Counted from the first letter of the stretch, positions 4,645-62,800 are shown. The stretch: 64,000 bases of DNA from Pelagomonas calceolata (GCA_918797485.1 CAKKNE010000002.1:1550001-1614000), one strand, 5' to 3'. The notes: generated from the letters alone by a model not told the origin. Translations and numbers: made by a program.

Positions 4645-5382
4645 ATGACCGCCGCCGTGTGGATAGTGTGGTTTGCCTTCGGTCTATTGTACTATGGCAT
4701 CACCCTGCTTGTTACTAGAAGCTACAATGTGAACCGACTGCGTGGAAATCAAATATACAGCGCGTTCGTCCTGAATCGCCGCGTCGACCTCCACGCCATC
4801 GACGCGACACCTGCTCGATGGCGTGGCGATGTCGGTTCATCACCGCTCGACGGAACCAGCGCGGCCACGTCATCGCCGAGAAATGAGCACAAGACACACT
4901 GGTTGATTTCCACACAGGTGACCGACGACGACGACGAATTCAAATGTCGCTTCAAGTTTTGGACGATATTTGCCATCTTCACCAGTGAGTTAGCTGGTGC
5001 TTTGCTCCTGTTCGCGACCATAGATAGATTCGGGCGCGTCAAATGCGCGGTCCTGTCCTATTTGCTCGTTGCGGTGTTCCTCATCCCCGTCGCCCTTGAG
5101 GCGTCCGGGACGTTTGTCTGGCTCTACCTCGCGCTGGCATTTGGAACAGCAGGGTCGTCGACAACGTGGGTGCATACGACGGAACTCTATTCGACAGACA
5201 TCCGGTCGACGGCGCACACGCTCGCCTTCATCGTGGGCCGGTTCGGCGGCTTTGCTTCGGGATACGTCGTCGAGAACGCAAACAGCATACCCTTCGCGAC
5301 GACCGTGCTGATCATCATGGCGGCGCTGAGCGCGTTGGGGACGTTGACGCTGCGCGAGACGATGGGGGAGAGACTCAGTTAA
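4645..5382 (+). pseudogene. C-terminal half of an SV2/SVOP-like MFS transporter, 5'-truncated; one introner (4729-4917)
   Basis: Motifs WFAFGLLYYG, IDRFGR, TTELYSTDIRSTA, LRETMG. In-frame TGA at 4606 and no room upstream for the N-terminal six TMs. Confidence 0.6.
4729..4917 (+). mobile_element. Introner family A intron (189 nt, GT-AG)
   Basis: TIR CTGCGTGGAAATCAA...TTGATTTCCACACAG; TSD GTGAACCGA/GTGACCGA; removal joins SYN|VTDD. Confidence 0.85.
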
Positions 5383-5385
5383 TAC

Positions 5386-6249
5386 TTACGTTTGCGGTTC
5401 GAACAACCCCCCCGCCGTCGCCGCGTCGGGCGCAGGCGGAAGGGGCTGGACCACTGAGCTCGGCGGCGGCCGGACCTGTTGGTGCGAGTAGTGCCGCACG
5501 GAAAAGCGCGAGCGCGGCGCGAGCAGGCCGTATCGATGGAAGACCCATCCGGCTAGCGCGCCGCCGAGGTGTGCCGCGGAGCCCGGGTGGCCGCAGACGG
5601 CCATCAACGAGTCCCACGCGACGAGGGCAGCCCCGACGTGCGACGCCTGAAACGGCCGCGCGACGTAGAAGAGGTGCACCGGCGATGTCGGGTTCTTCAG
5701 GATGAAGACGCAGCCGCAGGCGTAGACGAGCGCGCCCGAGCCCGTCACGCCTCCTGACGCGCCGAGGGATTGTGATACCGCCGTCGCGCAGCCGCCTGCA
5801 ATAATACTCGCCAACGCGAAGCGTGCGAACCGTTGTGACCCCGCGGAAGTCTCCACCGGCTTCGCCACGAGATAGAGTGCCAGTAGACCGAACCCCAGCT
5901 GGGACGGCGTCCCTGTAACAATAGCGTGCGCCGCGAGAGCGTGGAATCGTCGCATCTGTAAGGCGCGGCGGCAGCACACGGCGTGCCCGACGATGGAATG
6001 ACGTAACTTGGGCCGCGTCGACGCGACGAACGTCAGGAGATGCGAAGCCGCCAGCGCGTACGTGATCGGTGCATCCCGTCGAAACGACCGCTGCCAGTCG
6101 CTAAACGCGTTGTTCGCGCCGCCGGCGTGAATTTTGCGGCATCGCTGCGAGGGTTGCAGCGCGCGGACTTTGGTGCATCGCTGCGACGGCTGGCGTGCAC
6201 ATGCGCGCGCGACGAGTAGCACTGCAACAAGGGCTGCTCTGCGCATCAT
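5386..6249 (-). CDS. Rhomboid-family intramembrane protease(-like)
   Basis: Multiple TMs, VTGSGA (GxSG-like), SAAHLGGALAG catalytic-His motif, N-terminal signal-like peptide. Confidence 0.7.
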   Translation of the reverse strand: MMRRAALVAVLLVARACARQPSQRCTKVRALQPSQRCRKIHAGGANNAFSDWQRSFRRDAPITYALAASHLLTFVASTRPKLRHSIVGHAVCCRRALQMRRFHALAAHAIVTGTPSQLGFGLLALYLVAKPVETSAGSQRFARFALASIIAGGCATAVSQSLGASGGVTGSGALVYACGCVFILKNPTSPVHLFYVARPFQASHVGAALVAWDSLMAVCGHPGSAAHLGGALAGWVFHRYGLLAPRSRFSVRHYSHQQVRPPPSSVVQPLPPAPDAATAGGLFEPQT

Positions 6250-6410: not shown

Positions 6411-6428
6411 TGCGCGTTCACGTAAACA

Positions 6429-7721: not shown

Positions 7722-8480
7722 CTATTCCAACATCCACTTAAACTTCGTCGGCCGCAAAGCCCGCGCGACCTTGTCGTAATTCGAGATGAGACTCCGAACC
7801 GGGAGAGCTCCATGCACGACGTGCGTCGTGTTCTTGAGCGTCATTGTCCGCAGGCGACTCGCGTCCGGCGCCGGCCAGAGCCCCAGCTGGTACATGATCG
7901 TCGCCCACACTTCGGGCCGGTCGACGACTTCCTCGTACCAGTGGAGCCGCGCGTCGCCGCAGCGATTCCGAAACAGCGACGCGAGGCGCTCGTTCTGGTC
8001 GTACTCGTTCGCGATGCGCTCTACGAGCCCGTGGATGCGTATCGACGGCCGGAAGCGCCGGAGGTCGGCTGCAGCGGCGGCCGTCGCGGCGTGCGACGCC
8101 GAGCCGCGCATCTTGGCCGCTTCATTTGATATTTCTCGTCGCAGGACGTTCCGTCTCAAAAGCAGCACATAGGGCAGCTTCATTTCGCAGACGGCAGACG
8201 CTAGCGCCGTCAGCGACGCGAATGGGTGAGTGCCGTGCTGATGGTGGCGCTTCTGGCCCGACCTGTGCGGAAATCACATTCCGTCCCCGACGCCATCGAT
8301 CCGACGTTGATTTCTGCACGGGGCCCAGACGTGTCCAGGTGCGTCATAAACTTGAATCCGAGCGCCGTGCGATAGCTGTTCCGCCGCTCCTCGTGCGCCC
8401 GGGCGAAGACCCGCCGCAGGGCACAGACGCACGCCGGCGACGGCGTCGCGGACGCGCACGCCCCAATCCCTGACTCTCTC
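7722..8480 (-). pseudogene. Stf0/NodH-like sulfotransferase, 3' portion only; 5' end not recoverable
   Basis: After removing intron 8263-8330 the frame reads ...RTALGFKFMTHLD...LLLRRNVLRREIS...WYEEVV...LISNYDKVARAL; no in-frame 5' PAPS-binding loop or ATG found. Confidence 0.55.
8263..8330 (-). mobile_element. Minimal introner family A intron (68 nt)
   Basis: CTGTGCGGAAATCA...TGATTTCTGCACGG TIR; TSD GGCCCGAC/GGCCCAGAC; core ACGCCATCGA; removal restores frame. Confidence 0.75.
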
Positions 8481-9471: not shown

Positions 9472-12400
9472 CTACACGCGGAGCCCCGCGATAAACTCGG
9501 CGTCGCGGATTCCTCCGAGGATGGCGCGCGCCGCGTCCGAGTCAGAGGGAATCGCCATGTCGTCGAGGTCCGACTCGTTGAGCGACGGCAGCACCTCGTC
9601 ATCGACGTTCTGTGACAGGAACTTCGTGAATAAGTGCGGGCGTTCGAGCTGCGAGAGGAAGCGTGCGACGAGGGCGTAGCCCGCAGGCGCGCCGCCGACG
9701 AGCGCAATCGCCGCGTCGTCGCGTGTCGCGGCGGCAGGCGCGGCGGCAGCGGGCGGCGGCAGCGGCCGCGCGACACCTAACGCGGCGTACGCACGCGCCA
9801 CCTCCTCGTCGATGGCCAAACGTCGTCTCTCCGCGTCGGCCTCTACGGCCTGTAGCGACGCGGCCACCACCGCGTCGTCGATGACCTCGTCCGGCTCGTC
9901 AGCGACCGCCGGTGCCGAGGCCTCGCGCGCACTCAGCGCCAGAACGGCGCGCAGCTGCTCCTCGTCGTCGCCGTGGCGGCAGCTCTCCGCGCGACTAGCC
10001 GCGAGGGCTCGCTCGAGCTCGTCGTCCTTCGCCGAGGTCTCGGCCAGCGAGGCGGCCAGCGCGCGCTCGAGATCGACATCTTCCGTAGAAAAGACGACGC
10101 CCGCGTGCCGGTCCTCCACGGCCCTCGCCGCGTACGTGAGCGCTCCGCCGCCGATGGTCCAAGCCATGGGCCCGGGCTGCAGCATCGCGAGCGGCGCAGC
10201 CTCGTCGTCCTCGTCGTCGCTATAGTCGGTATCCGAGTCGCCGCCCTTCCTCTCTTCGTGACCATAAATGTCGCGCGCGGACAGGGCCGTCGCGCGCGCC
10301 AGATCCTCCGCCTCCCGCTGGCGCGCGACCGCGTCCGCGAGCTTCACTTCGGCCTCATCCCGCGCCTCCATGGTCGCCACGATCAGCTCCGCGCTTCTCC
10401 GCTCGGCCGCCTCCGCAGCCGCGTCTTCGTCCGCGCGCGCCTTACTTTCATCCAATGCGCGCTGCAGGGCCGCGGCCTCCTCCGCGGCGGCGGCATCTCC
10501 CGCCTCGGCGCTCACGTCGTCGACCGCGCGCCGCTCGTCGATCTCGGGCGCCGGCGCGCGGTCGGCAGCGCCCGTCGCGCGGTCGGAGGCGCCCGGTTCC
10601 GGCAGCACCGACACGGCCGGGAGCGCCGCCGCCTCCGACAGGAGCACGTCCGGTAATGATGGAGCCGGCGCGCCCGGCTCGCGCAGGATGCGGATGTGCC
10701 GCTCCGGCGACCGGTCGTAGGACCGCGTGCCCACGCCGTAGACCTCGCAGACGGCGTGCGCCTTGCGGCGCTCGGCGCGCCGCATCGGCCGGAGGCTGTG
10801 GGCCGTCCTCCTTGAATCGGCCACGAACGCGCCGAGCTCCTTTTCTAATCTCTTCACGCGCCGCGGGTCCTTGCGCGCCCACGTCAGGAGCTCGTCGGAC
10901 CAGAGCTGCGCCGCGGCGTGCTTGAGACCGCCCGCGAAGACGTCGACCTTGCGCTTCGCCGCGGCGAGGTCGTCGAGGACGCGGCCCTCGCGCTCGGGGC
11001 TTCTCGAGGTCTCCGGCTGCGGCACACTCGTGCATTTCGAGTACTCTTTCACGGCCTTGAGCTGCTTTTCCACCGCGGCGCTCGCCGCGCGCCGCGAGGC
11101 CTCGTCCCGCACCGCCAGCTGCTTCATGCGCTTCTCGACGGTGTCTTCCGTCACCTGGAGCTGGTGCCAGATCCCCGCCAGTACCAAGTTCTTGCCCGTT
11201 CCTATCTTCATCCACGGCGGGACCTTGCCGGTCGCCGCCCAGGCCGGGCAGACGAGGCCCCTCCTCAAGGGATTCTTCGCCTTGGCAAGGTCCCGCCCCA
11301 GAGCCTCGAGTTCGCCGGTCGCGCGCAAGTCCAACGCCCGCGCGGCCACGCTGCCCATCGCCACCGCCTCCTTCGAGGCGGCGCCGTAGTGGTCGGCCAG
11401 GACCTTCCACGCAAAGGCGGACTCGGCAACGATCGGCCCGGCCTCCAAAATGAGCCGCAGCGACGAGATTGGGCCGTGCAAGTCCGACGACCGCGCCTCC
11501 GTGGCCCGAGGCGAGAACGCGACCTCTGCCACGCGCGCCGCATTTGCCGCGGCCGCGGCCTGCAGCGCGTCGTCGCCCCGGTCGTCGCGCGCCGCGTACG
11601 TCGCCGGCTCGACCGGATTCACGCGCAAGACGATCTCCCTGGCCGTGCCTTCGGCCACAAGGCAATATATTTTGTCCCCGTCATAGTCTCCGCCGGCCAT
11701 CATGTCCGCGACGGGCCGCGGGCCCTCGGCGGAGAGGACCAAGAGGTTCCGCAAAGACCTACAATCCAGGCCGGCCGGCGGCGCGACCGCCGTTAATTTT
11801 CTGACGTCGCCGGGATGCGTGCACGGCGACCGCCAAACGAGGAGCTTGCCGCGATATTCTCCGCCGGCCACGAGACACTCGCCCTCCTTCAATCCAACCC
11901 ACCGGTCGCAGACGCAGAACGCGAGCCACAGGTGGTCGCACGGGATGCTCATCTTGTTTTTCGCTAACGTCAGCTGTGTGGAAATCAACCAGTGAGTCGG
12001 GTACATCGCGTCGATGGCGTGGAGGTCATGATTGAGCCGTGATGAAGACGCGTTGCGACAATTTGATTTCCACACAGAACGTCACCGCCGCCCTGATCGC
12101 TTTCAGCACGCTCGCTTCTTCGGGCTTGCCGTCGACGCCCAGCGGACCGCGCAGCCGCAAGTCGACGAGGTCCTCCTCGTCGTCGCCCTCGAGCTCGAGC
12201 GACTCGTCCACGACCTGCAGCGCCTTCAAGGCGGTAGAGAGGCGGGCGAGCTGCTCGCCGGTCGCGTCTCCGCTGTAGCCGCCGCCGCTGCCGTCCACGT
12301 CGACAGGCGTCCACATGAGCGTCTTTCTGATGAAGACGCGCAGCAATTCGTGCAGGAGGTGCGCCGCGTCGCCCAACAGGTGCTCCAAGCAGACGAGCAC

Positions 12401-14581
12401 CTGGAGGAACAGCATGTTCCCCTCCTTCTTGATGGACGCGAACTCCTTGACCTCGAGGCGCAGGTCGCCCGACGGCGCCTTGACCATGGACGGCGAGAGC
12501 AGCACGCGGCGCACCGTGGGCCCCATCCGGGGGTCGACGACCAGCATGCCCTTGCTTCCGCCGAACCTAACTTGCATGGCGCCACCGCCATCGCTTTCGT
12601 CGTGGCGCGCCCGCCGCGCGGCGTCGCGCGCCAGCGCCGGCGATATCAGGCCGCAGCCGTCGCTAAAGTTGTGGCCGTCGTGGTAGATGTCGGGCGCAAC
12701 CTCGACCTCGTGGCGCTTGAGGCGCGACGTCGGCAGCGTCGTGGAGAAACTGTTCCCGATGTACTTGCCCCTCTTCGCGTCCGGGACCCCTTCAAAATCG
12801 CCCAGCGACGCGATCAGGGCCGGCACCGAGCGGAACGCCGGATCGCTATCGTCGGGCAGCGGCGCCAGGAACGTCGCGACCGGTTTGGGCCCTTTGTCGT
12901 ATACGTAACAATAGACGCGGCCGCAGCAGCGAATCGGCGCCAGCTCGCCGTCGTCCGTCACGAGACGCTCGACGACGTCTACGTCCTTGAAGCCGAACTG
13001 TACATTGGCCCAACGATCCGAGTGTCTGAGGTTGCGGTGCGTCGCTCGCTTGTACTCCGACGCCAGCTTCAAGGACGTCGGCACGAGCCGGAGCTCGTGC
13101 GCCATCGGGTCGCGAGAGAAGGCCGCCCGGTAGTGCGGCACCGGCCAGCGCGCCGCGACGGAGGCGTCCACGCCGCCCGACCTGTGTGGACATCAACCAG
13201 TGAGTTAGGTTACTTGCGGAGACCTTCGTGAACCTCCACGCCATCGAGCAGACGCAGTGGGGCGTCCGAAATTTGATTTCCACACAGCGCCCGACAAGAG
13301 CTCGTGCTCCCTCCTCCCGACAGTCCGCTCCCAGTCCTTCCTAAACTTTTGGGCCTCGCGCAAGGCCTCGCGCACGGCGCGGCGGAAATCATTCAAGGCG
13401 TCGGCGTCCGTCTTGTTGCCGCGTCGTTGCGCGCAGAGCTCCGCGCGGAGCGTCCGCAGCGGCTCGGCGAGCTCGATCGCAGCTTTCTCCGCCTCGAGCC
13501 GCCCGCTTCCCTCGCGGTTCCACGCGCGCGCGAGGATCGCCACGACGTCCGTCTCGAAGGCGCGGAGCACGTTCTCCACCGCGACCGCGTTCGGCAGGGG
13601 CGTGTTCTCCGAGACCACCGCCTCCGTCTGGAAGGTGAACGGGAAGGGGAGCTCGGCCGCCGCCGCGCGCCGGAACGCGGCCAGCCGTTTCTTGCACGTG
13701 TCGTCGAGGATGCACGCCTCGAGCACGCGGACGCCGTGGGCACCAAGCAGCATCCGGTTCTGGTCCCGCCGGACGAATCGCTCCGCCGCAGCGGTAATCT
13801 TCGACTCCTCGAGTCCCTTCTGGTAGTCTTTGTCGTTCACGTCGTACTTGAGCTGCCTCCACTTCTTCATTTCGAGTTGCTGCTCTTCGGTCGGTTCGAT
13901 CGGGGGCGGCTGCCACACCTCGATCTCCTGCGCGGTCCGGCGCCCGGCGCCGCCGATTGCGAACGGCCGCGAGGTAATGCCCTGGCGCAGGCAGCGTCGG
14001 CAGTCGAACATCGTAACCTGCTGCTCGTTCGCCACTAGCCCGTCCGCGAACAAATGTGCTCCGTTGTCGAAGGGCTCGTCTAGACCCGACGCGGGCCGGC
14101 AATACCCGCAGCTGCTGCAGACGGCTATGGGGGCCGAGAAGACGCCGCTTTGTCGGCACTCCCAGACGGCCATCAAACACCCGTCGGCCCCAACCCAGGG
14201 CTTAATGGGAGGCTGTAACGCGCGCCGTAGCGCTAAAGGAGCCCGGACGTCGTCCACCACTTCAGGCGTCGGCTCGCCCTCGTCTCGCGCGTCCCGTAAC
14301 AATTCTTCCGTATCTACGTTGCGTGGATTCGTGCGGCGGAGCGCGGGGTGCCGCGACGCGGGCTGCGGCGGCCGCGGAGGCAGTGGTGCTGGCGTGTCGT
14401 TCGCGAAAGCACCTCCTGTCCGCTGAGGCGTCGTCCTCGCTTCGGCCTCTTGCCGGGCCGCCTCTTCCTTCGCCTTGACCGCCTCCTTTTTGAGGGCCTC
14501 CGCGTGACAGGCCTCGGCACGCCTTGCTGCGGCCTCGCGCTGAATCTGTGCGCGAAGCGCTTTTTGTCTTTGGCTGGGCAT
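9472..14581 (-). CDS. Cellular RNA-dependent RNA polymerase with N-terminal Cys cluster and C-terminal R3H, 3x UIM and SAM; exons 14581-13296, 13181-12086, 11973-9472 (~1627 aa)
   Basis: RdRP motifs SDGCGLIS, QVRFGGSKGML, RSPCTHPGDVR, MAGGDYDGD (11674-11688); R3H-like PMRRAERRKAHAVCEVYG; UIM-like DLERALAAS x2 and EQLRAVLALS; SAM-like terminus. Exon sum 4884 nt is divisible by 3. Confidence 0.9.
11974..12085 (-). mobile_element. Introner family A intron (112 nt)
   Basis: TIRs CTGTGTGGAAATCAA; TSD AACGTCAG/AACGTCAC; joins IRAA|LTLAK. Confidence 0.9.
13182..13295 (-). mobile_element. Introner family A intron (114 nt)
   Basis: Perfect 8-bp TSD CGCCCGAC; TIRs; joins EL-L|SGGVDAS. Confidence 0.92.
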
Positions 14582-16881: not shown

Positions 16882-18099
16882 ATGCTAGGCACCCTGCAGC
16901 AGCGCCATAAAAGGCAGGACGTCGAGCAGCCGCCGCTGAGCCCGAAAAAAACGACAACAACGCCAGCGAACAAGGGCGCGAACGCGTTAGCATTACTAGC
17001 CCTCGTCTTCTTCGCGAGCGCCGCGCCCGTCGCGACGCAATTGGTAAGACGGCCCGACGGCTCGTACCCCTTTGAAGTGGTCGACGTCGTGCTCCGCGCC
17101 GAAATTTTGAAATTGTGCATCGCATCCACTTGCCTCGCGTACGAGCTCCGCGGTCTAGGAGAGACGGAGCGGCGCGAAAGGGCCCCAACGCCAACCACAA
17201 AAGGGCTGCTCCTGACGCTCGCGGTCGGCGCGGGCTACCAAGCCCTCAACATTTTGGGGGGCTTGGCCATGCGCGTCCTCGACGACCCGACGCTCTTCGC
17301 CGTTATTGTTCAATCAAAAGTCGTCTGGACGGGCGTGCTGGGCGTCTACGCCTTTGGTAGGCGGCTTTCGCCCGCGCGCGTCTTCTCCTTGGTACTGGTC
17401 GCTCTTGGTGCGTCCGTCTGCGCGGCGCCCAAACCTGTGTGGAAATCAAATTTCGGGCGCCCCACGCCATCGACGCGACGTGCCTCCGTAGCTGCGTCTC
17501 TCACTGCATGATTTCCACGCAGGCCCAAGCCGAACACTGATGTGGAGAAGGTGCGCACACGAATAACAGGCTGCCTCCTGGCCGGCGGCGCGGCGCTGCT
17601 GTCTGCTATATTAACCGTGGCCTGCGAGGCCGTGGTGAAGCGCGGCCGCGCGTCGCTGCACTGGCAGAACCTGCAGCTGTACGTTGTCGGCATCCTGGTG
17701 ACGGCGTCGACGCTGACGCGGCCACCATCATTGGTGATCTCCTACGCCATGGGCGCCCTGATCGTGCTCGAGGCCTGCAAGGGCCTCGCCATATCGTTGG
17801 TATTGAAGCGCACCGACGCCGTCGTGAAGACGCTCGCTACCACATTATCGATCCCGGGCGTCGCGGTCATGGAGCGCCTCGTCGTGCCGGGCGTCGCGCC
17901 GATGGCGCTGCCCATGCTATTGGGCGGCGGCGCCGTCGTGTTGGCGATCACGGCGTACCACGAGGGCCCCGACGGCCGCGACAAGCCGTTCCTCGCCGCG
18001 GCGCTCGGGCTGACGCTGTTCGGGGCCGCGACGCTTGTGGTCGACGCGGGGTGGCCGCGCCGCGAGCTCTTGGGTTCCGAGTCGCCGCCGCCGGACTAA
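16882..18099 (+). CDS. Nucleotide-sugar transporter (SLC35A-like); intron 17427-17522
   Basis: AEILKLCIA, QSKVVWTG, LHWQNLQLY, LAISLVLKRTDAVVKT; splicing joins the two ORFs in frame. Confidence 0.8.
17427..17522 (+). mobile_element. Introner family A intron (96 nt, GC-AG)
   Basis: TSD GCCCAAAC/GCCCAAGC; TIRs; joins CAA|PKPNT. Confidence 0.88.
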
Positions 18100-19827: not shown

Positions 19828-21282
19828 ATGACCGATGCGGAGGCAACGGGCTCGCGCCGCGAGCGCTGCGCGCTAGCTGCGGCTTTTTTGCTCTCGGAGA
19901 CGACGCAGGACGCGGCGGTCGCGGCGAGCGCTTTGGTGGCGCTCCAGTTGTTCGGAGGCTACGAGGAGTCGCTCTTCATCGTCATCGTCATGACGATGTT
20001 ATTAATTGGCATCCAGCTGTCGCACGTCGTCGGGCGCCGAGGCTGGACGCTGGTCCTCGGCGGCGCGGCGGTCTGCGGCGCGGCCGGGCTTGCGATGCTC
20101 GGTGCGGCGCTTTCATCAAACTTCGGGCCGCGGAACGCTGGGATGTTGGCGATCGCTGGCTCGGTTCTGCTCGGCGCCCACCGCGCGGCGCACATGCTTT
20201 ATAGGTTTGCAGCTTTAGAGATAGGTGGCGTCGCGTGCATGGGCGAGGTCTTCGCGGCGGCGACGTTGGGTGGTTTGCTCGGGCCGCAGTTACTGATAGA
20301 TCTTGGTTTGCAGAAGGGCCTAGTTTGGGCCGCCGTGGCGCAATTGGTCGCCGTGATACCGATCATGCTCGCGACGCGGGGCCGCGACGCCGCGACGGCG
20401 GCCGACCGCGCGACGGCGGAGGACTCCGGGCGCTCGATCACGGCCGCGCTCCGGAAACTGCGCGATGCGGCGCGCGGCGACGCGCTGCTGCGCCTCGCGC
20501 TCATCTGCGGCGTGACGTCGTGGGCGATCATGCTGCTGGTGACCGTGCCGGCCGCGGCCATCGCCGTGGCGTCCTTCAAGATGACCACTTGCGCGGCGAT
20601 CCGCGCGTTGCAGGTGCACATCTGTGTGGAAATCAAATTTCGGGCGCCCCACGCGTCTGCGCGATGGCGTGGCGATTCCACGCTATCGACGCGATGTTGT
20701 CCCCGTGACCGCGTCGACTCCATGGCGTGGAGGCTCGCGAAGGTCCACGGCCTAGCTCACTGGTTGATTTCCGCACAGGTTCACGATTTTCTGATGAACG
20801 CGCCGGGCCCGGCCACGGCCGCCGTCGTCGAGCGCTCCGGCCCGCGCGCGGCCATCGCCTTGGGGCTTTTGATCTACGTCGTGGTCGTGGGCGGCCTATG
20901 GGCCTGCGGGAGCGACGACGCGCTGTATCCTGTGGTGACGGCGGGTGGGCGCGGCGAGCGCTTAGTCCAGCAAGCCTTCTTTGGCCTCGTCGTGGTCTTG
21001 GCCCTAGGCTGGAATTTCATGTGGCTCGCGTCGACGTCGGCGTTGGATGCTGCCGCTCGCGCGGGCGGCGCGACGAGCTGCGGCGAGATAGCGCAGATCC
21101 GCACGGCGAACGAGTTCTGCATCTACTCTGCGTCGGTAGCGTTTCTCCTCGTGTCGATGGTCACGCGCGACCGCTACAAGGACGTCGTCCTCATCAGCGC
21201 GCCGTTCCTCGTGGCAGTGGCCGTGGCAACGGGCCAGGCCAAGTCGCAAGCCTATGGGGTCGTCGAGACGGAGCTCCCGTGA
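19828..21282 (+). CDS. MFS transporter; intron 20614-20778
   Basis: ~12 TMs, VVGRRG loop, YRFAALE, GGLLGP, LGWNF. Confidence 0.75.
   Translation: MTDAEATGSRRERCALAAAFLLSETTQDAAVAASALVALQLFGGYEESLFIVIVMTMLLIGIQLSHVVGRRGWTLVLGGAAVCGAAGLAMLGAALSSNFGPRNAGMLAIAGSVLLGAHRAAHMLYRFAALEIGGVACMGEVFAAATLGGLLGPQLLIDLGLQKGLVWAAVAQLVAVIPIMLATRGRDAATAADRATAEDSGRSITAALRKLRDAARGDALLRLALICGVTSWAIMLLVTVPAAAIAVASFKMTTCAAIRALQVHICVEIKFRAPHASARWRGDSTLSTRCCPRDRVDSMAWRLAKVHGLAHWLISAQVHDFLMNAPGPATAAVVERSGPRAAIALGLLIYVVVVGGLWACGSDDALYPVVTAGGRGERLVQQAFFGLVVVLALGWNFMWLASTSALDAAARAGGATSCGEIAQIRTANEFCIYSASVAFLLVSMVTRDRYKDVVLISAPFLVAVAVATGQAKSQAYGVVETELP
20614..20778 (+). mobile_element. Introner family A intron (165 nt)
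   Basis: TIRs CTGTGTGGAAATCAA/TTGATTTCCGCACAG; degenerate TSD GTGCACAT/GTTCACGA. Confidence 0.85.
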
Positions 21283-47140: not shown

Positions 47141-49403
47141 CTACTGGGACTCGACGGCGGACCCCGGCGCCGACCAGGCAAAACGAGAAAGCCCCTCGGA
47201 CTCGACGACGGCCGCCGCCGACACCGCTGCATCAACAGCATTCTTCTCGAAGTCGCGCCGCAGCCCCAACGCCGCGCGCACGTCGCCTCGACATACGCCC
47301 GCGGCCGACAGCCGCAGCGTCCTCACGTCACTCGGCGCCTCGACGCACAACAACGCCAAAGCGGCCGTCGTGGCCTCGAGCTCGGGACGTAACGTCGCCC
47401 GAAAGACCTCGCCCTCGCCCAGCGACTCCTCGGACGGCAATAACGCGCCCAGCGTCGCGAAGAGCTTCCGCGCGTCGCGCCGTAGCGCGAGGGCCCCCAA
47501 GGCGCCTACGTTGTCGCCGCTCGTGCACCGCGCCAATACCGCATTCGCAGCGTCTTTCGCTAATTTCCGACATAACGCTAATCTAGGCGCGCCCGCCGGC
47601 AGCGCGTCCAAGGCCGCCGTCAAAGCGGCATGATTTAGTACTTTCTCATAGGCGTTGTCCAGCGCCGAGTCGTCGTCACCAAGCACGTCCTGGTCGCCCA
47701 GTTTTGAGTACCTTCCTATTTTATCAGCAACAACATCAGCAAAGAAACTTCTCCGAGAAAGCATCAGACCGGGCTCGTCGAACAAAGCGGATAGTGCACC
47801 TGCGCGGAGGAGCATCGTATTCACTGGAAACGGTCCGAATGGCCTCAAAATCAAAAAAGAAACCAGCCACGACCTCGTCTGATGGACACGAGTCGCGTCG
47901 ATGGCGTGAAGGCGCCGCAACACTTCAAAACGCCGAGATCGCACCGGCCGCGAGCTCGTCGTACTGGTGTGAGGCGTGGTCGAAGTCATCTAGTAGAGGC
48001 ACGGCTAAAGGTACCGACCGCGCGAGCTCGCCCACCACTTCATCCTTCAGCGCCGCCACCGAAGAAGCACAGGCGAAGGCGCCGCCTGCTGCCACTGCTA
48101 AGGATTCGATCGACGCGCCGCGGACCTCCTCATCCACCGCATCAATTAACGACAGCTCCTTCTTCTCGCCCCTTGTAGCTAGTGAAGCCGCTGACTGGAA
48201 GACTTCGGCGTCCAGGGCCAGCGTCGCCAGCGTCCGGTGTAATTCCGCCAGCGCGGCCTGCTCTGATAGCGTCCCGACAGCTCGGTCCACGCCCCTCCGC
48301 AACACGAAGAAGGCGTCCTGCAAGGCAGCCAGCGGGTCGTCCATATCCTCAAGCGCTTCTCGCACGCCCGCATCTCTATACCTATCTTCCAGTTGGATAT
48401 ACAAACCTTCCAAGGTTTGTAAGGATTTCAGGAGAGTAGCCGTAACGGTCTCACCCTCCCCGAGCGCCCCCTCGACGAACCTCGTAAAGCGGTGGCCGAA
48501 CTGCAGCGCGAACGAGCACTCGTCTAGTAAAGCATCAGCTTCAGTTAAGTTGGAAATGGGCTCCCTACTAACAGTTTCCACGGACTTCATCATCGCGAAC
48601 CTTTCCAAAGCGTCGACGCCGGCGTTGACGCCTATTTGTAAAGGTTTTTCGGCGGCCTTTGCGCACCGCGCTTCGCCCAACACCGTACAAGCTTGCGCGA
48701 CCGCCGCCGCGGCACACGCCGCACCCAGCGCATTTCCTAATGCGGTAGCGTGGGCGTGCACGCTGTTCTCCTCCTCGGGTATGGCACCTCTTATCTCAAG
48801 AGTGGCGTGGTTCGCTCGACGATGCGCCGCGGCGGCCAACGCCGTGCCCAGCGCTTCCGTCGCGTCATCACTCAAACCCAAGAACGCGAGGCGCTCGCAG
48901 GCCCTCGATACACTTTCAACAGCGTCGTCCTCGGTCTCGACGCCGCCGTCGCCGACAACTTCGTCGGCACCTCGGGCCGCGACCGTCGCCGCGACTTCCA
49001 GCGACGCGAGCAGCCGCGGTTTTGAACCTTTCAAGGCGGCGTCGGCGAGCGCTTTCACAACATCATCTCCCTGATGACGCGCCGCGTTCAGTAGAGGAAG
49101 TAAAGCGGCCACCACCTGATCGTCGTCGCCTTCTTCCCTTGCCACGTGGCACTGTTCTACCATGAGACCGATTGCTTCCATAGAATCGTCCTGCGGACTT
49201 CGCGGCGGCTTCGGAGGCTTCGGCGGCTGCGGCGGCGAGCGGTGCTTCGCGGCGCGCGCCGCGAACTTGGCGCGCGCCGGCGTGCGTCCCGGCGGCGGCT
49301 GGGGCACGTCCGGCGTCGCATCCGCGACCGGCTCGCCGCCCGCGCGCGCGATCGCCGCATCCATCTTCTCGTCGTAGTTGGGGTTCGCAGGGGGTCTGCT
49401 CAT
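47141..49403 (-). CDS. COG4: Conserved oligomeric Golgi complex subunit 4-like; exons 49403-47945, 47799-47141 (~705 aa)
   Basis: DALLDE, YIQLEDRY, QDAFFVLRRGVDRA, LGALALRRDARKL. Confidence 0.7.
47800..47944 (-). mobile_element. Introner family C intron (145 nt)
   Basis: GTGCGATCTCGGCGT...CTCCTCCGCGCAG. Confidence 0.87.
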
Positions 49404-50335: not shown

Positions 50336-52964
50336 TCACATTTTTATGAGCTGCGTGTCCTCGGCCGTCGGCGGGCGCGACCCCGGCGACTCGGACGGCG
50401 CGGCGCCCTCGGCCTTCTTCTTCTTCGAGAGCCGTCCGAACAGCGACAGCTTCGGCGTCGGCTGCCGCTCGGACGGCGCCGGCGCCGGCGCCGGGGCTGG
50501 AGCCGGCTCGTCGACGAGGCCCGCCAGGGAGAGGTCGCCCATCGTGCGCCTCCTAGCTCGTAGTTCTTCGGCCCGCTCCGGCCAGAAGTAGGTCGCGCGG
50601 CCGTCGTGCCCGGCGAACGTGTAGTCGTGGCGCGGATCCAACCATTGGGAGGTGTGCGACGCGACGTGGTAGTGGAACTCGCGCTCCGTCGCGGGATCCG
50701 TAAATTTCTGCCAGCCCAGCGTCATCGCGTCGGCCGGTCTTCTCCGCAGAAAGTCGTCGCCGTCCTGGGGCACGGGCGCGGGCCATTCTCGCACCGGTCG
50801 TCTTCTAGGTGTCGCCGTCGTGTCTCCACTCGGATTCAGGTCCACGCCGCCTGATACCATAGGCACTCGTATCGGCGTATCATAAGCTTTCCAGATTGAA
50901 TCGTGCAGTGCACCAATAGCGAAAGGTTTCTTATCAAATAGTAAATCGGCAAGTAATTTGCCGAACCGCAACCCGTACATGTCTCTCAGCAGATTAGTTG
51001 TGTTGAATATATATATACTATCCGTGAGCACCGTCTCATCGTCCAGGTCGCGACATTCATCCATCTCTAACTCCAGCCAATACGACGACGAACTCTTCGT
51101 ATGTCGAACACGAATCCACCCCAGCAACCGGCGCGCCGTGAGCCGCCAGCTCTTCTCCAGCGTACTATGATTGACCAAGCTTCTTTCTAGTGATGGAGCG
51201 ACCATCAAGCACCCGAACAGCGCCTCGTCCGCCGGATCGAGACACGGTAATTGATGTCTCGACCAGAACTCGCTCCAGAAGAACTTCCGCTGCAGCTGCA
51301 GGTGGAAGAGTCCTGCGTAGCGGCGGTTTCGCGTGTTGCCGCGGTTTTCTGGCTCTCTCGCGGCGTCGACGCGACTCGTTTCCATCAGAGAAGGCGCTGG
51401 GTGGTCTCTATGGCAATTTTGAGTCGATTCGGACGCCGCGCGACGCACGTAATGGTCTGAGTAGTACAGGACAAGCACAGCAAGCTCGTATGAGCTCAGG
51501 AAACCGCACATGTGTCTTCTCCCCGAACAACGATGAAAACAGGTGCAAATGCCCTTTCGGGGTCCCGCCATGCCTGTGTGGGAATCAACCAGTGAGTCGG
51601 GTGCTGGCTCCGTCGAGCGGCGAGGAACCGGCATCGCCACGCCATCGAGTAGGCGTCGCGTCGATGGCGTGGAGGACGACGCGACGATTCAGCAACGCGC
51701 CGTGAAATTTTGATTTCTGCACTGCTCCATGCATGAGTGATACTAAATCCTCAAAGGGCTTGAGGGGCACTAACGCGTTCTCCGCGATCATTTGCGGGTC
51801 CAACAACAGCCGGAAGAACTTGAGGATCACGCCACAAGGACTTTGCCGCGCGAAGTCGTAGCCCGCAATGAGGAAGCGAGGGAACGTAATACACCCAACA
51901 TCGCGCGCCCTTTTGAGACCATGTAATTCTTTGACAAATAACAATGGGATTAGTATGAGTGAAGTGGCTTCGGACGTCTGGTGGTCGAACAAGTCCTGGA
52001 AATAATAAGTAGATATGCGGTTCGGTACCTTATGACCTGCGCGGCGCGTCGCAGTCGTCGACGGCGTCCTGATGGCCACGTAGACTCTCGTGGGATCACG
52101 ACGACGGCGTGACGCCATCGACGCGACCGCTGTCTCTCTGACACGCCGCGACGGCCCCGACGTGGTCCGAACGGCCTCAAACTCGAAAAAGAAACCAGCC
52201 GCGACCTCGTCTCATGGACACGAGTCACATCAACAAAGTGAAGACACCACAACACGACGGGACGCCGAGAACTGACTGTCGTCCGGGTGCTTCTTCGCGT
52301 GCAGATTGTCGTAGTACGCCTCATAAACTTTATACATCTCGCCCTGCGTGATCTTGTGGTGGAGCGCCCAAGCTTCCAAGACCAAGAACGCCTGCTGGTC
52401 CATGAGCGACGGGGGAAACTTGGCGCCGCTCTCGTCCGGCCTTATGACCTCCTTGCCTTTGCTATCGACGGACGTCGTCTGGATGCGATATTCCCTACCT
52501 GCTCTGGTGCCGTCCGCTCGTTTCGAGGCGAGGTACTTCCGATAAGCCGCGACCACCCAAGCTAATTTGCCGCCCCGGGCTTTCGCGGCCGCTCGGCGCA
52601 TGGCCGCGGCCCGCAACTTCCTACGTCTTTTCCGTTCCTTCACCGTTAATTTTCTCATTTTTCCTGTTTTCTCATCTAGTTCTTCGTCGGAAGACTCCTT
52701 GGCCCGGAGACCGGCCGTGAAGGACGCGCGCCAGGACTCAAGAATAGCGTCGGCCTCGGCCTTGATTTCGTTCCTTTTGATTTCTTCGGGCGTCGGGCCC
52801 GGGGGCGGCTGGTTCCGCTGCCGTCGCGCTCGTCGTCGCGCGCGCCGCTCCTGCCGCCTTCTTTCGTCAGCTTCCGCGCGCGTTTCCCGACCTTCCTTCG
52901 GCGCGGCCTCGGCGAGCTTGGCGCGCATCTCCTCCTCCGTGGGTCTCCTCGGTTCGTCGGCCAT
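50336..52964 (-). CDS. Hypothetical protein with C-terminal WW domain; exons 52964-52277, 52036-51733, 51573-51449, 51312-50336 (~697 aa)
   Basis: WW: LGWQKFTDPATEREFHYHVASHTSQWLDP; exon sum 2094 nt. Confidence 0.7.
51313..51448 (-). mobile_element. Introner family C intron (136 nt)
   Basis: GTGCGTCGCGCGGCGT...CGCTACGCAG; restores frame. Confidence 0.75.
51574..51732 (-). mobile_element. Introner family A intron (159 nt, GC-AG)
   Basis: TSD CGCCATGC/CTCCATGC; TIRs. Confidence 0.87.
52037..52276 (-). mobile_element. Introner family C intron with family B-like internal segment (240 nt)
   Basis: GTCAGTTCTCGGCGT...CCGCGCAG; 52081-52125 resembles 32839-32875. Confidence 0.8.
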
Positions 52965-58191: not shown

Positions 58192-59561
58192 TTACGAGGG
58201 GTCGCCGGGGTGGGGATTTTCCGGAGCGACCTTTCCCGGGTTCTCGTGGCGCGGCCCTCGACCCTCACCGTCGCCGTCGCCGCGCGGCTTCGAATCCCAA
58301 TTTCCGGCGCCCTGCGCGATCGGCGTCCAGACCTCGGCGTCCTCCATGAGCATCACCGTGCACAGGAGGGTGACGATCCAGTAGAGCAGCAGGTGGAACT
58401 CGCAGACGATGCGGAGCTGGTTGTCGTGGAGCACGTCGCCGTCCTCGCACTTCGGGTTCACGCACGGGCTCTCGGTCACGAGCGCGGCGTCGTCCCATTC
58501 GCAGGGCCACGCGCCGAGCTCGGCGACGGTCAAATTGTACCAGCGCCGCGGTACGAGCTCGCCGAGGCACGCCGCCCGGCTGTCGTAGAGAATGCACAGG
58601 TGCATGTCCGCGGCCTCCTCCGGGTCGGCCAGGACGACCATAAACGCGACGAGGAAGCCAAGTGCGGCGAGCGCCGCGAGCAGGGCCGAACCGAGGGCGT
58701 AGCGCGCGCGCCGCTTTCCTTTGTCGGTCGTGTAGAGTTCCTTCATGGTCAAAGAACACGAACCGTCCGCGTTGAGTTCCATCGTCGTCAGCACGGCGCG
58801 CGCGAGCGCGGCGAAGAGCGTGATGCTGACGCCCCCGCCGATGCCGATGAAGTGCATCGTCCGCATGTTCCGGTTGTTGCAGGAGCCCGCGCTCGGGTCG
58901 AGGTCGCAGCTGTGTGGAAATCAACCAGTGAGTTACGTTTTCCTGAGGACTATGTGAACCTCCACGCCATCGCGCAGACGCACTCATTGGAACGACGTGT
59001 CGTCGATGGCGTGGGGCGCCTGAAATTTGATTTCCACACAGTTCGCTGCTTGTCGGCGCGGTCGGGCACGACCGCCGTGATGCAGACGAGGATGATGGCG
59101 TAGCGTATGACCATGTCACATCGCTTCCGCGCGACGTCGTCGCTCGCGCAGCATCGTTCTGTGAGCCTCCCCTTCATAGCCTTCACCGCCATCGTGCCCG
59201 ACTTCAGGAGCCGTCCCGCCTTGCGCGGGCGCTTGTCGGCCAGCCGCTGGATCTTGTGGTCCTGGATGAAGTTGATGCGGCCCAGGATGTACACGGCGAC
59301 GGTCACGAGGCTCACGAACATGAAGACGTAGCCCTCGAAGAAGATCGAACCCGACACGCGACTTATGGAGGCCGCGTAGCCGCCCGCAGACGTGCAGTCC
59401 TCGCGGAGCAGATACATGCTCATGATCGCCGCGAGGCAGCCCATGAGTATCGGTACCAAAAGGTACTCGGACTGCTGCGCGCGCACCACATAAGAGCACG
59501 ACTCGAGCATAACTACTGCGATGCAGTACGGCACCCACAGGAGCGCCTGTGAGGACACCAT
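58192..59561 (-). CDS. Multi-pass membrane protein (possibly Frag1/DRAM-like); exons 59561-59050, 58909-58192 (~409 aa)
   Basis: Several TMs; splicing joins the two ORFs in frame (1230 nt). Confidence 0.6.
58910..59049 (-). mobile_element. Introner family A intron (140 nt, GC-AG)
   Basis: Well-preserved TIRs CTGTGTGGAAATCAA; TSD eroded; joins AD-N|CDLD. Confidence 0.83.
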
Positions 59562-59884
59562 GCTGCCCGACGGCTGCCCTCTACGGCGCCTGGCGCAGCG
59601 CGGCTCTGAGCGTGCGATCCCCGCACGTTTTTCGTATCTCTCCGCGACGCGGGCTCCTACTAGCCATGCTATGGCCCGAACGAATGCTGGTGCGGAGCTG
59701 TGAAAGCCGGAAACCCGCGGACTGCCGGCAAGCTTAAAGCGCTGGGAGAGCTGCTCCGAGAGCAGGTACGAGCTTGTAGAGCTAAAAGCTCGCATAGCTG
59801 CCCGACGGTGCTCGTTTGCGCCAAAAAGTCGGGCTTGAGCTCGGGCTGCCCGACTGGTTGAGCTCGGGCTGCCCAACAGCCAAG

Positions 59885-62800
59885 ATGGTGGTCTGCTCGA
59901 GCTGCGCCGAGCTCTTGTACCCGCCCGGCGCCAAGTTCTGTGCCTGGTGCGGCACCGCAGCTCCCCAGTGGGCGGGCTCCTTGGCGGAGGATAGAGAGGC
60001 GCTGCGAGCGCTGCGCGAGGTCGACGCCGCGATCGACGAAGTGCTCGAGAACTCCCAAGTGAACCTGAAGGTTGCCATCGACCACGACTTTATTGATCAG
60101 AGCAACGACTGGGCCGGGATCGCGACGCTCGTGGTGCCGCCCGCGCACGTCGTCCGCGGGGCCACGATCTCCGGGCACTGGTGCGACCAGGGCAGCGGGA
60201 ACCAAAAAGGCCGAGTGCGCTTGGTTCTGCTGCGGGACGGCGCCCTCGTCGCCGATGCGGCAGTCCCAGGCCTCGCCCCGCACGGAAGGGAGTCCTTTTC
60301 CGTCGTGCTTGAAGGTGACGTCATGCTGGCCGGCGACGTGGTCGCGGCGCAGATCATCGTGGGCGGCGGCGGCGGCCACGCGCTCAAGCTGAAGGGCGTG
60401 AAGCTGGTCCTGGACGCGACGCCGACGGAGGCGCTTGCGAAGAGTGGCTACGTGGAGGCGGACGGCCGCGTGACGCAGCTCAGCTTGTACGAATGTGAGA
60501 GCCTCGCGGCGCTGCCGCCCGCGATCTGCGGACTCTTGGCGCTGACGACGCTCAAACTGGAAAAGTGCTCGGGCCTCAGAGCGCTGCCCGACGCCATCTC
60601 CGAGCTTAGCGCGCTGGCCGAGCTCTGCCTGAGCGAGTGCGAAAGCCTCGTCGCGCTCCCAGACGCCATCGGCGAGCTTGGTGCGCTGAAGAGTCTCGAC
60701 CTGTCGTTCTGCCGGAGCCTCGAGGCGCTTCCAGATGCTATCAGTGGCCTAGGCGCGCTGACGACGCTCAACTTGTATCAGTGCGAGAAACTCGTCGCGC
60801 TACCGGACGCGATCGGTGAGCTCGGCGCGTTGACGGAGCTCAAGCTGGATGAGTGCACAAAAATCACAGCGCTACCGGAGACAATTGGCGGGCTCAAGGC
60901 GCTAAAGATGCTCGACATGACCGACTGCTCGCGCCTCACCTCGCTGCCGGCCGCAATCGGCGAGCTTGGCGCGCTAACGAAGCTCGACCTGACCGGGTGC
61001 TCGAGCCTCGCCGCGCTGCCGGCCGCGATTGGCGAGCTCGGCGCGCTGACGGACCTCAACGTGAGTGGCTGCACGAGCCTCGTCGCGCTACCGGACGCGA
61101 TCGGCGAGCTCGGCGCGCTGACGGAGCTCTACTTGAACGGCTGCACGAGTCTTAGCTTCCCGCCGTTGCGCATGCATGAAGACGTTGCGATGGTGAAGCG
61201 CTGCCTCGCGAGCGTCGGGCCGATCGTCGACGGTGCGCTGGCCCTGGAGGACGCGGGAGCCGACGAGCGGGAATTCTTTTTCGCCGACGTCCTCAAGCAT
61301 CCGGCCTACGCAGACCGCCTCGGCGCGCGCGTCCGCAAGGACCCGGCGTTCGCCGACCTCACGAACGACAAGGGCCAGCGCGTCGTCGAGCTCGCGTGCT
61401 TCGAGTGCCGAGCGCAAATGCAAAAGGCCCTCTTCCTCCTCCGGAGGTACGCCGTCGACAAGACGCCGCCGCTGCACTTCTCGGCGACGGCGGCGGTCCT
61501 GGGCGCGACGGACCACGATAAATCCGACGTCAAGCCCCGACGCGCCCTGAAGGCGATGCGACGGGTCGACCAGGTGCTGGCGGAGCTCGAGGGCCGCGCG
61601 GGCCTCGACAGACGGTTCGTGGTCGCCGTCGTCGCCGTGCACGTGAGCGCGACCGTGTCTGCCGTGGACCACGATGAGGTTGCCGCAGCGGCGGGCAAGT
61701 TGGACGGCGTCGTCGTCGAGAGGGCCGAGGGCCTCGGCGAGGACCTGGCGGGTCTGCTCGCGGCGCGCGAGCAGCAGAACGACGCTTCCGCCGGCCGCTT
61801 CATGGGGTACGACTACCTCCTCGTCATGGAGCTCGCCGAGGAGAGCCTGAGCAAGAAAATCATTCACGGCGGCGTCTGCGGCGTCGACCTGGTCGAGATC
61901 CGCAAGATCGCGCGGGAAATGGCAGAGGCCCTGGACCATCTCCATCTGAAGGGCCGGATCCATGCGGACCTCAAGCCGCTGAACGTGGTCCGCGTCGGCA
62001 CAACGTGGCAACTAGTGGATCTTGACGTGTCCTGTGCGATCGGCGATCCCTTTGGCACGAAGAAGCCGTCCCTAGGCTACTGTCCGCCGGAGATGGCTCA
62101 GACCTGTGTGGAAATCAACCAGTGCGTCGGGTGCACCCGACAATTCTTCACTAATTCATTTCTTGGCGACAACGCGGCCGTGCTGGCTCGGTCGAGCGGT
62201 GAGGAACTTGCATCGCTACGCCATCGAGCAGGCGTCGCGTTGATGGCGTGGAGGCCGACGCGACGAGTCAGCACGAACGCGTCGTAAAATTTTGATTTAC
62301 ACACAGGCTCAGACTATCCTCGACGCGATGGATGCCTCAGATCGGCTGGACACGGCCCTACTCAGCGCCTACACCGCGGACAAGGCCTACGACCTCTGGT
62401 CGCTCGGCGTCGTTCTTTTTCATCTTGCCACAGGCACACCCCTGTGGAAGACCGATAAAAATGACGACACGTCCCCGAAAGGCCTGCGCAAGCTGGTCAA
62501 GCGCTGCTTCGACCTCGATCGCAAACTGGCCGTCGCGGCGCCGCGCCCGACGGACGATTTCGATGGTGACCTCCAAATGCTGGCGTTCGACCTCATCCGC
62601 AAGCTTCTGACGCCCGAGCCGGACGAGCGACTCAAGGCCTTCAAGGGGGCCACGCCAATGCGAGGCGTCCTGCAGCACGGCTTCTTTTCCAACGAGCGAG
62701 GCGCGGCCGGGCGGGGAGACGCGGGCCGAGACGACGAGGTGATGAAAGTGTTCGCGGAGGTACGGGCGTCGCAGGCGCAAATCCTTCGGTCGGTCAACGC

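Follow-up and report, generated by a model that had tools for sequence, protein, structure and literature searches.

Three introner types in Pelagomonas calceolata share sequence, including a 15-nucleotide motif, and appear to recombine

The presence of introners in the marine alga Pelagomonas calceolata is already on record. In particular, Guérin et al. (2022; PMC9481584) described 956 repeat-overlapping introns as putative introners, with GT or GC donors, AG acceptors, conserved terminal inverted repeats (TIRs) and a length peak near 210 bp (Supplementary Note 3); the sections of that account cited here contain no sub-families, shared internal motif, duplication-less types or mosaics. Aureococcus anophagefferens has introner MITEs of about 200 bp that move by DNA transposition, insert in both orientations and co-opt a splice site (Huff et al. 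2016; PMC9860276, PMC10228655, PMC9481584), and an introner family of an Aureococcus sp. has an 8-bp target duplication (PMC9860276). In Micromonas pusilla, the families IE-A1 to IE-A4 are built from universal and family-specific motifs and include nested or merged elements (Verhelst et al. 2013; PMC3879977), and this species has families that bear a duplication and TIRs alongside families that do not (PMC9860276).

Here we analyzed 64,000 nucleotides of P. calceolata DNA (the window, numbered from its first letter), which holds 32 repeat introns of three types, A, B and C. They are listed below by coordinates and strand, together with the positions of the 15-nucleotide motif that the types have in common.

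4729..4917, +: A1 intron, target duplication copy plus TIR element; motif 4792-4806
8263..8330, -: A2 intron, 68 nt, deleted; just a 3-mismatch inverse motif arm
11974..12085, -: A3 intron, perfect TIRs; motif 12007-12021
13182..13295, -: A4 intron, perfect 8-bp target duplication; of the motif, just the inverse arm is left
17427..17522, +: A5 intron, GC donor; motif 17463-17477
20614..20778, +: A6 intron, part of the interior duplicated in tandem; motif 20679-20693
21634..21738, -: A7 intron, sequence left of the motif C-like (28/30 nt to C11)
22045..22243, -: A8 intron, motif 22149-22163
24714..24931, -: A9 intron (IFT122), ~100-nt unrelated filler; motif 24882-24896; site common to P0001 and P0146
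25045..25174, -: A10 intron (IFT122), motif 25124-25138
25473..25576, -: C1 intron (IFT122), no motif, no target duplication
26037..26170, -: B1 intron (IFT122), B 5' half; sense motif 26078-26092, left flank A-like
26287..26428, -: C2 intron (IFT122), motif 26378-26392
27341..27497, -: B2 intron (IFT122), antisense motif 27441-27455
31583..31697, -: C3 intron, motif deleted; spliced
31968..32200, -: C4 intron, inverted duplication of C body; motif 32164-32178; spliced
32786..32947, -: B3 intron, antisense motif twice (32861-32875, 32891-32905); nearest to the B patch of C13
33126..33351, -: C5 intron, GC donor; inverted duplication; no motif
34377..34590, -: C6 intron, GC donor; inverted duplication; no motif
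35180..35341, -: B4 intron, antisense motif 35255-35269
36678..36899, -: A11 intron, target duplication and left TIR, remainder largely unrelated; motif 36830-36844 (2 mismatches)
37323..37484, -: B5 intron, antisense motif 37428-37442
40075..40303, -: C7 intron, long inverted duplication (folding z -7.7); motif 40271-40285
42397..42521, +: C8 intron, AT-richer variant in the motif's place; spliced
43706..43842, -: C9 intron, motif 43800-43814; spliced
43994..44141, -: C10 intron, C body with B-like acceptor end (last ~17 nt); no motif; spliced
47800..47944, -: C11 intron, motif 47894-47908; spliced
51313..51448, -: C12 intron, inverted C body between C ends; motif at 3 mismatches; spliced
51574..51732, -: A12 intron, GC donor; target duplication matching at 7/8 bases; motif 51657-51671; spliced
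52037..52276, -: C13 mosaic intron, a C body (nt 4-118) followed by a B patch and a C acceptor end; spliced; found in some relatives, missing in others
52077..52147, -: B-derived patch of ~70 nt in C13; antisense motif 52111-52125
58910..59049, -: A13 intron, perfect TIRs; target duplication aligns only when shifted by one base; motif 58999-59013
62096..62306, +: A14 intron, near full-length reversed element; perfect 8-bp duplication; GC donor; motif 62236-62250

As is characteristic of introners, introns of unrelated genes are similar end to end here, the 32 copies falling into three groups, and they excise exactly with restoration of the reading frame, as judged from RNA reads, open frames and IFT122. 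All have GT or GC donors and AG acceptors, and the reading frame stays open for 40 codons or more on either side. Junction reads were found for at least nine of the 32 (C3, C4, C8-C13 and A12), among them C3 (503 and 111 reads), C8 (34 and 25), C11 (7 and 16), C12 (6 and 5), A12 (9 and 6) and the mosaic C13 (11 and 9). Moreover, when six introns are removed, the predicted protein equals the annotated IFT122 of P. calceolata, and comparison with orthologues shows no extra residues.

Type A is a TIR/MITE introner. Its elements have 15-bp TIRs (perfect in A3 and A13, the right one lost in A11) and an 8-bp target duplication, which gave 59 matches compared to 25.6 upon permutation (0 of 20,000 permutations as high) and is also present, partly degenerate, in nine metagenome copies for which both TIRs were found. 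An 8-bp target duplication is compatible with the hAT, P or Merlin superfamilies. The first duplication copy supplies the donor GT or GC and the terminal repeat supplies the acceptor AG; therefore splicing restores the gene. Insertion occurs in both orientations, with one of the 14 elements (A14) reversed relative to its gene. Viral contigs and prokaryote genomes, scanned separately, gave 0 matches. Type A agrees with the putative introners described by Guérin et al. (2022; PMC9481584) in the same species, and its co-opted splice site, 8-bp duplication and use of both orientations liken it in these features to the Aureococcus introners; a search for the motif and TIR strings in part of the PMC9860276 supplement found neither.

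Types B and C differ from the Aureococcus introners in having neither a duplication nor long terminal repeats. For the 18 B and C introns, we counted 32 target-duplication matches on the donor side compared to 29.4 upon permutation (p=0.27), and there was no duplication on the acceptor side (p=0.38; a lone 7/8 match in C10); these two tests revealed no hidden duplication on either side. Comparison of each B and C element with itself also gave no inverted alignment of the termini at E<=0.01. Both splice sites are carried by the element and no residues are added, unlike in the Aureococcus sp. family of PMC9860276 (Fig. 2F). In lacking a duplication and TIRs, and in their direct genic insertion, B and C resemble the introner-like elements of ascomycete fungi (PMC9860276), and all 18 are like these elements duplication-less, TIR-less and sense-only in genes. 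They are unlike the fungal elements in that they share sequence with a TIR- and duplication-bearing element of the same genome, and in that B is not strongly structured (mean folding z of -2.7 for A, -0.7 for B and -2.1 for C, the last driven by C4, C5, C7 and C12; controls -0.04±0.84).

We entertained the idea that B and C spread via RNA, by reverse splicing into transcripts and then reverse transcription, in which case the motif and the A-like ends would be relics of an A origin. This is how the duplication-less, TIR-less fungal elements are interpreted in PMC9860276 and how the Micromonas elements were formerly interpreted (PMC3879977), and it would account for the lack of a target duplication and for exact insertion without added residues. 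The sense orientation of all 18 introns, and a downstream exon that begins with G in 18/18 and with GT in 11 (p=3e-5), fit reverse splicing as well; however, selection would impose sense-only orientation under any route. Moreover, the upstream exon ends in AG in just 2/18, the folding of B is no better than that of shuffles, and the inversion of whole bodies, the inverted duplications and the mosaics of several patches resemble DNA template switches. We therefore consider spread through RNA unlikely.

Presence or absence of the introns in relatives was derived from protein sequences, not DNA. The IFT122 proteins of two relatives (P0001, 93.5% identical, and P0146, 92.4%) pass into A-element sequence at the site of A9 and are continuous through the sites of C2, B1, C1 and A10, that of P0146 also through the B2 site. 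In P0164, A12 is identical over 28 residues and C13 is absent. By protein read-through, P0001, P0146, P0164 and P0165 thus lack introns found here. Note that because the evidence is from proteins only and the branching order of the relatives came out unresolved, absence may reflect loss instead of gain. Since several B and C introns are absent where relatives keep a duplication-bearing A, age is likely not the reason that B and C lack a target duplication. In DNA run X13 no empty sites were seen at a depth of about 6, a result that carries no weight. The N-terminal tail of P0160 looked C-like by eye and gave no match to C when compared. Element read-through places the same spurious peptides in many database proteins; nearly all of the best 120 among 424 protein database matches were to elements.

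The preliminary description had reported that one motif of about 15 nucleotides occurs in all three types, and this was confirmed: the 15-mer is exact at 4792-4806 (+, type A) and 40271-40285 (-, type C), and the B site at 32861-32875 has one mismatch and an exact 14-nt core (32862-32875). There are 12 exact copies in the window compared to 0.00 expected (eight in A, four in C, none in B) and 25 matches with at most two mismatches compared to 0.95 expected, 24 of them inside the 32 repeat introns, which make up 7.97% of the window (p=1e-25); shuffled introns yield 0.085 matches. The motif is therefore not equally frequent outside introns, even though CpG density is 0.136 both within the elements and elsewhere in the window, and these numbers rule out chance or GC/CpG bias as its source. 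At up to two mismatches it is carried by 12/14 A, 5/5 B and 6/13 C introns (A versus C, p=0.046), leaving 9 of the 32 introns, including 7/13 of C, without it. Relative to the transcript, the motif is sense in 11 A introns, 5 C introns and B1, and antisense in the other four B introns, in C13 and in A14, where the element is inserted backwards. The further claim that both orientations often occur within one intron held for 10/32 introns at up to three mismatches and for 0/32 at up to two, the second, opposite copy being a shorter, imperfect arm. The shortened form noted in the 68-nt copy (8263-8330) was likewise borne out, as just a 3-mismatch antisense arm. Rfam gave no match. In the protein P0166, the unit of motif plus arm is translated five times in tandem.

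To what extent is the motif maintained? In six long A copies it is the best-conserved 15-nt window (0.99 versus 0.90) and, with gaps counted, none of the 157 windows ranks above it, while in four short A copies its conservation is no better than average (0.93 versus 0.91) and in C it is below average (0.77 versus 0.82). (Note that 19 metagenome element copies were excluded from the conservation and CpG counts, having been picked by exact motif.) These values do not favor the proposal that the motif is one common functional cis-element, as it is gone in 7/13 C introns, conserved below average in that type and inverted in 4/5 B introns. Nor is it a required splicing enhancer, because at least four of the nine introns that lack it at up to two mismatches (C3, C8, C10 and C12) show spliced RNA reads; in the same gene, the motif-less C10 has 495 and 535 junction reads and the motif-bearing C9 has 717 and 670. 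A signal selected by the host in all three types, whether a splicing enhancer or a CpG-methylation or nucleosome-linker mark, would be consistent with the confinement of the motif to introns and with its exact preservation in 4/13 C introns despite a divergence of about 18% within C. Orthologous A9 copies in three lineages, at 7–9% protein divergence, have all kept the motif while their interiors differ, and this retention after insertion fits homogenization, but host-level function too. In Aureococcus, DNMT5 methylates CpG in linkers. Here CpG transitions are slightly elevated (7.4% versus 4.7%, p=0.015), but A/T sites also reach 7.4% and the CpG density of the introns equals that of the rest of the window. 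Given in addition the variable strand and position of the motif and the splicing of introns that lack it, we regard a host-selected signal as highly improbable.

In type A the motif sits 28–73 nt inward of the left end and is accompanied by its inverse arm. The subterminal sites of hAT-type elements resemble such an arrangement. Transposase binding, which had been among the roles suggested, is plausible for type A alone, where the conservation in six copies suggests that the motif is likely part of an end signal read by a transposase. In B and C the motif is likely a dispensable passenger, and the types likely have it in common by descent or capture from A. Alternatively, A, B and C could be independent transposon families with a MITE-like shared interior, cross-mobilized by one motif-binding transposase. 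The subterminal position of the motif with its arm and a locus with A ends and a C core (L105, E 1.5e-8) speak for such an arrangement, as does the precedent of the coral CMITE families, in which a common interior lies under different TIRs (PMC2872659). A single transposase, however, predicts the 8-bp duplication in all types, and this is absent from B and C, even from apparently young insertions; with the motif lost in 7/13 C introns as well, cross-mobilization has little to recommend it. Note that in the coral families, too, the interior is more conserved across families than the ends and new elements are assembled from parts, as here, whereas their duplications are of the piggyBac type (TTAA) throughout, they are not introns, and the shared interior is 75 nt long compared to 15–45 here (PMC2872659).

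The ends of the three types had been taken to be unrelated, and this view did not hold. The donor ends of B and C (nt 7–18) outscore all 500 shuffles, and the acceptor ends, which are similar to the A terminal repeat, outscore all 300 shuffles, although the latter likeness may be convergence on splice signals. Similarity between A and C reaches past the motif and is collinear over 28–47 nt, whereas that between A and B hardly exceeds it (15–18 nt). The best score of the B donor end against an internal A segment was 23 compared to a shuffle maximum of 22, which is suggestive of a derivation of that end from A; the other B ends scored under their shuffle maxima. A PHI-type recombination test was significant for C (p=0.0004) and for the long A copies (p<=0.0006), though it may be inflated by misalignment near indels; clonal simulations, which did not include star-like trees, were significant in 0/12 cases, with a mean incompatibility of 0–0.14 compared to 0.46–0.47 in the data.

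Element copies have a patchwork structure that includes deletions, duplications (tandem as well as inverted) and mosaics of different types. The clearest case is the spliced C intron at 52037-52276 (C13), in which a B-like segment had been recognized and was verified here. In particular, 52079-52126 matches B3 at 32837-32876 (BLAST, E 1.4e-5), profiles assign nt 4–118 to C (E 1e-27) and nt 130–200 to B (E 4.6e-7), and a B-specific 21-mer outside the motif occurs in C13 and B3 alone (0 expected). An assembly artefact is ruled out by exact RNA joints; an independent DNA contig (run X13) spans 51665-52105 with no differences, and the proteins P0162 and P0163 of relatives share the 3' part of C13. 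At a further locus (L041), a C body is joined with an A module. Taken together, C13, L105 and the incompatibility within A and C support, from sequence comparison, the view that A, B and C are linked and recombining, as the preliminary description proposed. The part of that proposal that was not upheld is that of the motif as a free hub: flank typing of 44 motif copies gave mostly fixed lineage pairs, with one likely switch (A7) and one ambiguous case (C4), so that the motif was rejected as a frequent crossover point. (The metagenome scan behind the additional copies returned at least 120 loci, of which visual inspection assigned 19 to element copies and the others to chance.)

We think it probable, on balance, that A, B and C form one recombining introner pool, with a motif that derives from A, serves there as a transposase end signal and is a passenger in B and C. 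Under this account, a break in or at an element, from transposon excision or a stalled hairpin, would be repaired by synthesis off other dispersed copies, and jumps of the synthesis between templates, at brief stretches of common sequence like the motif hairpin, would leave a patchwork. The same repair copying might also place B and C at new sites without duplication, which is the least certain of these steps. A more specific and rather doubtful version holds that introners without duplication arise as a side effect of a cut-and-paste introner: A excises, the gap is refilled with template switching, and selection favors clean splicing. If so, B, C and the mosaics would arise at or beside former A sites. 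Two hints, both decoded from protein only, point this way, namely a C11-type intron of P0163 at the A12 site or no more than about 9 nt from it, and a C-type acceptor of P0001 about 4 nt from the B2 site.

The shared motif is the lesser point, as shared motifs and merged copies are already known in Micromonas introners, which belong to another lineage and have another sequence; in the parts of the Micromonas account cited here (PMC3879977), families that have a duplication are not tied by sequence to those that lack one, and copies are not tested for recombination. What matters more is how duplication-less, TIR-less introners spread, which for the fungal ones has been attributed to reverse splicing without direct proof. 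Here, scar-bearing and scarless elements share sequence, recombine and vary among close relatives of an abundant, cultured and sequenced alga, so that a comparison of empty and filled alleles can decide between an RNA and a DNA-repair route. If true, excision and refilling would constitute a DNA-repair route to the 'scarless' intron gain that is usually ascribed to reverse splicing.

Self-comparison and end searches identified 32 repeat introns (introners) of three types, numbered along the window (14 A, 5 B and 13 C), which together make up 5,099 nt, or 8% of it; counts given here are for this window only, unless stated otherwise. All 32 begin with GT or GC and end with AG, and removing any of them leaves both sides with an open frame of 40 codons or more. 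RNA junction reads support at least nine of the 32 (C3, C4, C8, C9, C10, C11, C12, A12 and C13), and in one RNA-examined stretch all seven elements have such reads (C8 to C13 and A12). Removal of the six repeat introns of IFT122 (A9, A10, B1, B2, C1 and C2), a gene that starts at 27972 on the minus strand, yields a 1229-residue protein that is 100% identical to database record P0151, named P. calceolata at its source. The window comes from this species, a pelagophyte, whose genome paper counts 956 putative introner elements that have terminal inverted repeats, GT/GC donors and AG acceptors, and describes more introns in low-GC regions (PMC9481584). All 18 B and C introns of the window lie within 25473-52276, a central stretch of lower GC, and A copies occur across the whole window. 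Other A copies are the source of hundreds to more than 1,000 poly(A) RNA reads that stack on 25079-25162 and 51601-51694, both within A introns; some A copies elsewhere are therefore likely retained in abundant mature RNA.

24714-24931: A9, type A intron of IFT122
28106-28235 and 30674-30803: near-exact direct duplicate of 130 bp, outside the introner families
42397-42521: C8, type C intron
43994-44141: C10, type C intron
51574-51732: A12, type A intron
52037-52276, minus strand: C13, mosaic intron with a C body and a B patch
53383-54123 and 60467-61165: coding regions with internal repeats (tandem repeat proteins), from self-comparison
54120-54153: candidate 34-nt GT-AG intron without similarity to introner elements
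62096-62306: A14, the one reversed A copy

The preliminary description had reported a 15-nt word (the motif) common to A, B and C introns, and this feature is real and was correctly seen. The exact 15-mer occurs 12 times in the window, with 0 expected, and 25 times at up to two mismatches, with 0.95 expected; its carriers are 12 of the 14 A, all five B and six of the 13 C introns. Enrichment relative to non-element DNA holds with CpG considered, as 24 of the 25 matches lie inside elements (p=1e-25) and CpG density is equal within elements and outside. The B introns never contain the exact 15-mer, and four of the five carry the motif antisense. That the motif often occurs in both orientations within one intron held in part at three mismatches (10 of 32 introns) and not at two (0 of 32). 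Several A copies have, just downstream, a shorter, imperfect antisense copy (the inverse arm) with which the motif pairs, and mean folding z was -2.7 for A, -0.7 for B and -2.1 for C, compared to -0.04 for 30 control windows. In A9, approximately 100 nt of unrelated filler separate the motif from its inverse arm; the same site in relatives holds an element that is either canonical or heavily deleted.

One function that had been suggested for the motif is that of a splicing enhancer. Splicing does not depend on the motif, because C3, C8, C10 and C12 lack it, yet are spliced according to RNA junction reads; within the same gene, motif-less C10 has 495/535 junction reads and C9 has 717/670. When measured from window copies only, conservation of the motif exceeds that of every other 15-nt window in six long A elements (0.99 vs 0.90), is average in four short A copies, and falls below average in eleven C copies (0.77 vs 0.82). 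This pattern would fit a constraint linked to A mobility, such as a putative subterminal transposase site; that the A9 orthologues in three lineages all retain the motif counts against a purely mobility-linked role. Transitions at CpGs were slightly raised, at 7.4% vs 4.7% (p=0.015, with copies that are not independent), but did not exceed the rate at A/T sites. In C13, the decayed motif (52223-52232) has CpG-to-TpG changes from the consensus at three CpGs, and C8 has CpG-to-CpA/TpA changes at the matching place.

Type A is a MITE-type introner with transposon anatomy: its terminal repeats are 15 bp long and its target duplication 8 bp (59 matches, compared with 25.6 after permutation), with the donor supplied by this duplication and the acceptor by the terminal repeat. 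Introns of types B and C have family-specific donors and are inserted without duplication, none being detected on their donor side (p=0.27) or acceptor side (p=0.38), and in IFT122 the four such introns contribute no extra residues relative to orthologues. An 8-nt direct repeat across both junctions of C10, on the acceptor side (43993-44000 and 44141-44148), is unique among the 18 B and C introns. The ends of the three types had been regarded as unrelated, which is contradicted by the donor ends of B and C at nt 7-18 (score 3.3 vs -5.8 for shuffles, beating all 500) and by the acceptor ends, which beat all 300 shuffles in every type pairing. Micromonas uses GTGCGT as its ordinary donor (PMC3879977), so the likeness of the first bases and of the acceptor may partly reflect splice consensus. 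Similarity between A and C spans 28-47 nt around the motif, in the same orientation, and that between A and B mostly 15-18 nt.

The view of C13 as a C-ended intron with a B-like segment was borne out. The C profile matches nt 4-118 at E 1e-27 and the B profile nt 130-200 at E 4.6e-7, masking of the motif leaves 67 positions painted B (maximum of 64 in 1,500 random windows), and a B-specific 21-mer is found in B3 and C13 only. Copies are patchworks within type C too, with conflicts between alignment blocks in C13 (5' end with C8, middle with C10) and in C10 (both ends with C11, motif with C8, further on with C3). Among C copies (p=0.0004) and long A copies (p<=0.0006), compatibility is higher between nearby than between distant sites, a pattern seen in 0 of 12 clonal simulations. 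C4, C5, C6 and C7 contain inverted duplications, C12 has an inverted body, and the reading frame of one database protein runs through five tandem copies of the motif unit. Nineteen of the 120 metagenome motif matches listed are element-like loci, and among these one (L105) combines A ends with a C core, and in another (L041) an A module accompanies a C body. Left and right flanks, compared in 44 motif copies, are mostly lineage-paired, and exchange is therefore general and not motif-centred. Of the modular, recombining system that had been proposed, exchange between copies and types stands.

Site states in relatives were deduced from ORFs of database proteins that read into introns. At the A9 site, P0001 and P0146 run into an A element, and both are unbroken through C2, B1, C1 and A10; P0146, on contigs of up to 17 kb, is also unbroken through B2, and P0001 has a C-type acceptor approximately 4 nt from B2. 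The A9 site is passed unbroken by P0149, P0155 and P0159 as well, and therefore either A9 is itself polymorphic or these three records derive from transcripts. In a lineage at 88% identity, IFT122 calls of full length lie on 19-95 kb contigs and are likely without introns. P0162 and P0163 have C13, and P0164, P0165 and P0249 do not; in P0164, A12 is identical over 28 residues. Judging from these protein-derived states at C13 and in IFT122, some duplication-less introns appear to be no older than A introns that retain 7 of the 8 duplicated bases. At the A12 site, or just behind it, P0163 carries an element of C11 type (E 1e-14). Separately, the ORFs of three IFT122 relatives (P0150, P0153 and P0159) end near residues 1119 and 1192, where the window genome is intronless; the tail of P0159 runs clearly into an A element, and those of P0150 and P0153 are short.

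In Micromonas, IE-A introners have universal and family-specific motifs and include merged elements (PMC3879977), and in M. pusilla families with and without duplication coexist (PMC9860276); the supplement to the latter enters four Pelagomonas MAG families with a "?" for duplication and TIR status. A term search of the main text of PMC12130899 returned no mention of pelagophytes, and the open-access passages searched contain no description of these Pelagomonas sub-types, the motif or mosaics. The A, B and C introns of Pelagomonas represent a variant within an already known class of elements.

We infer that patchwork introns would arise through repair synthesis that switches template from one dispersed copy to another, and that this synthesis could also have carried the motif between types. 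A preprint on the P. calceolata genome suggests that synthesis-dependent repair is frequent, since MSH4 and MSH5 are missing. More tentatively, repair synthesis might also insert B and C at new sites, for which the main alternative is insertion by reverse splicing. The motif itself is most simply explained by shared ancestry inside one recombining pool. Of greater interest than the motif is that introners with a transposon scar and introners lacking one are linked.
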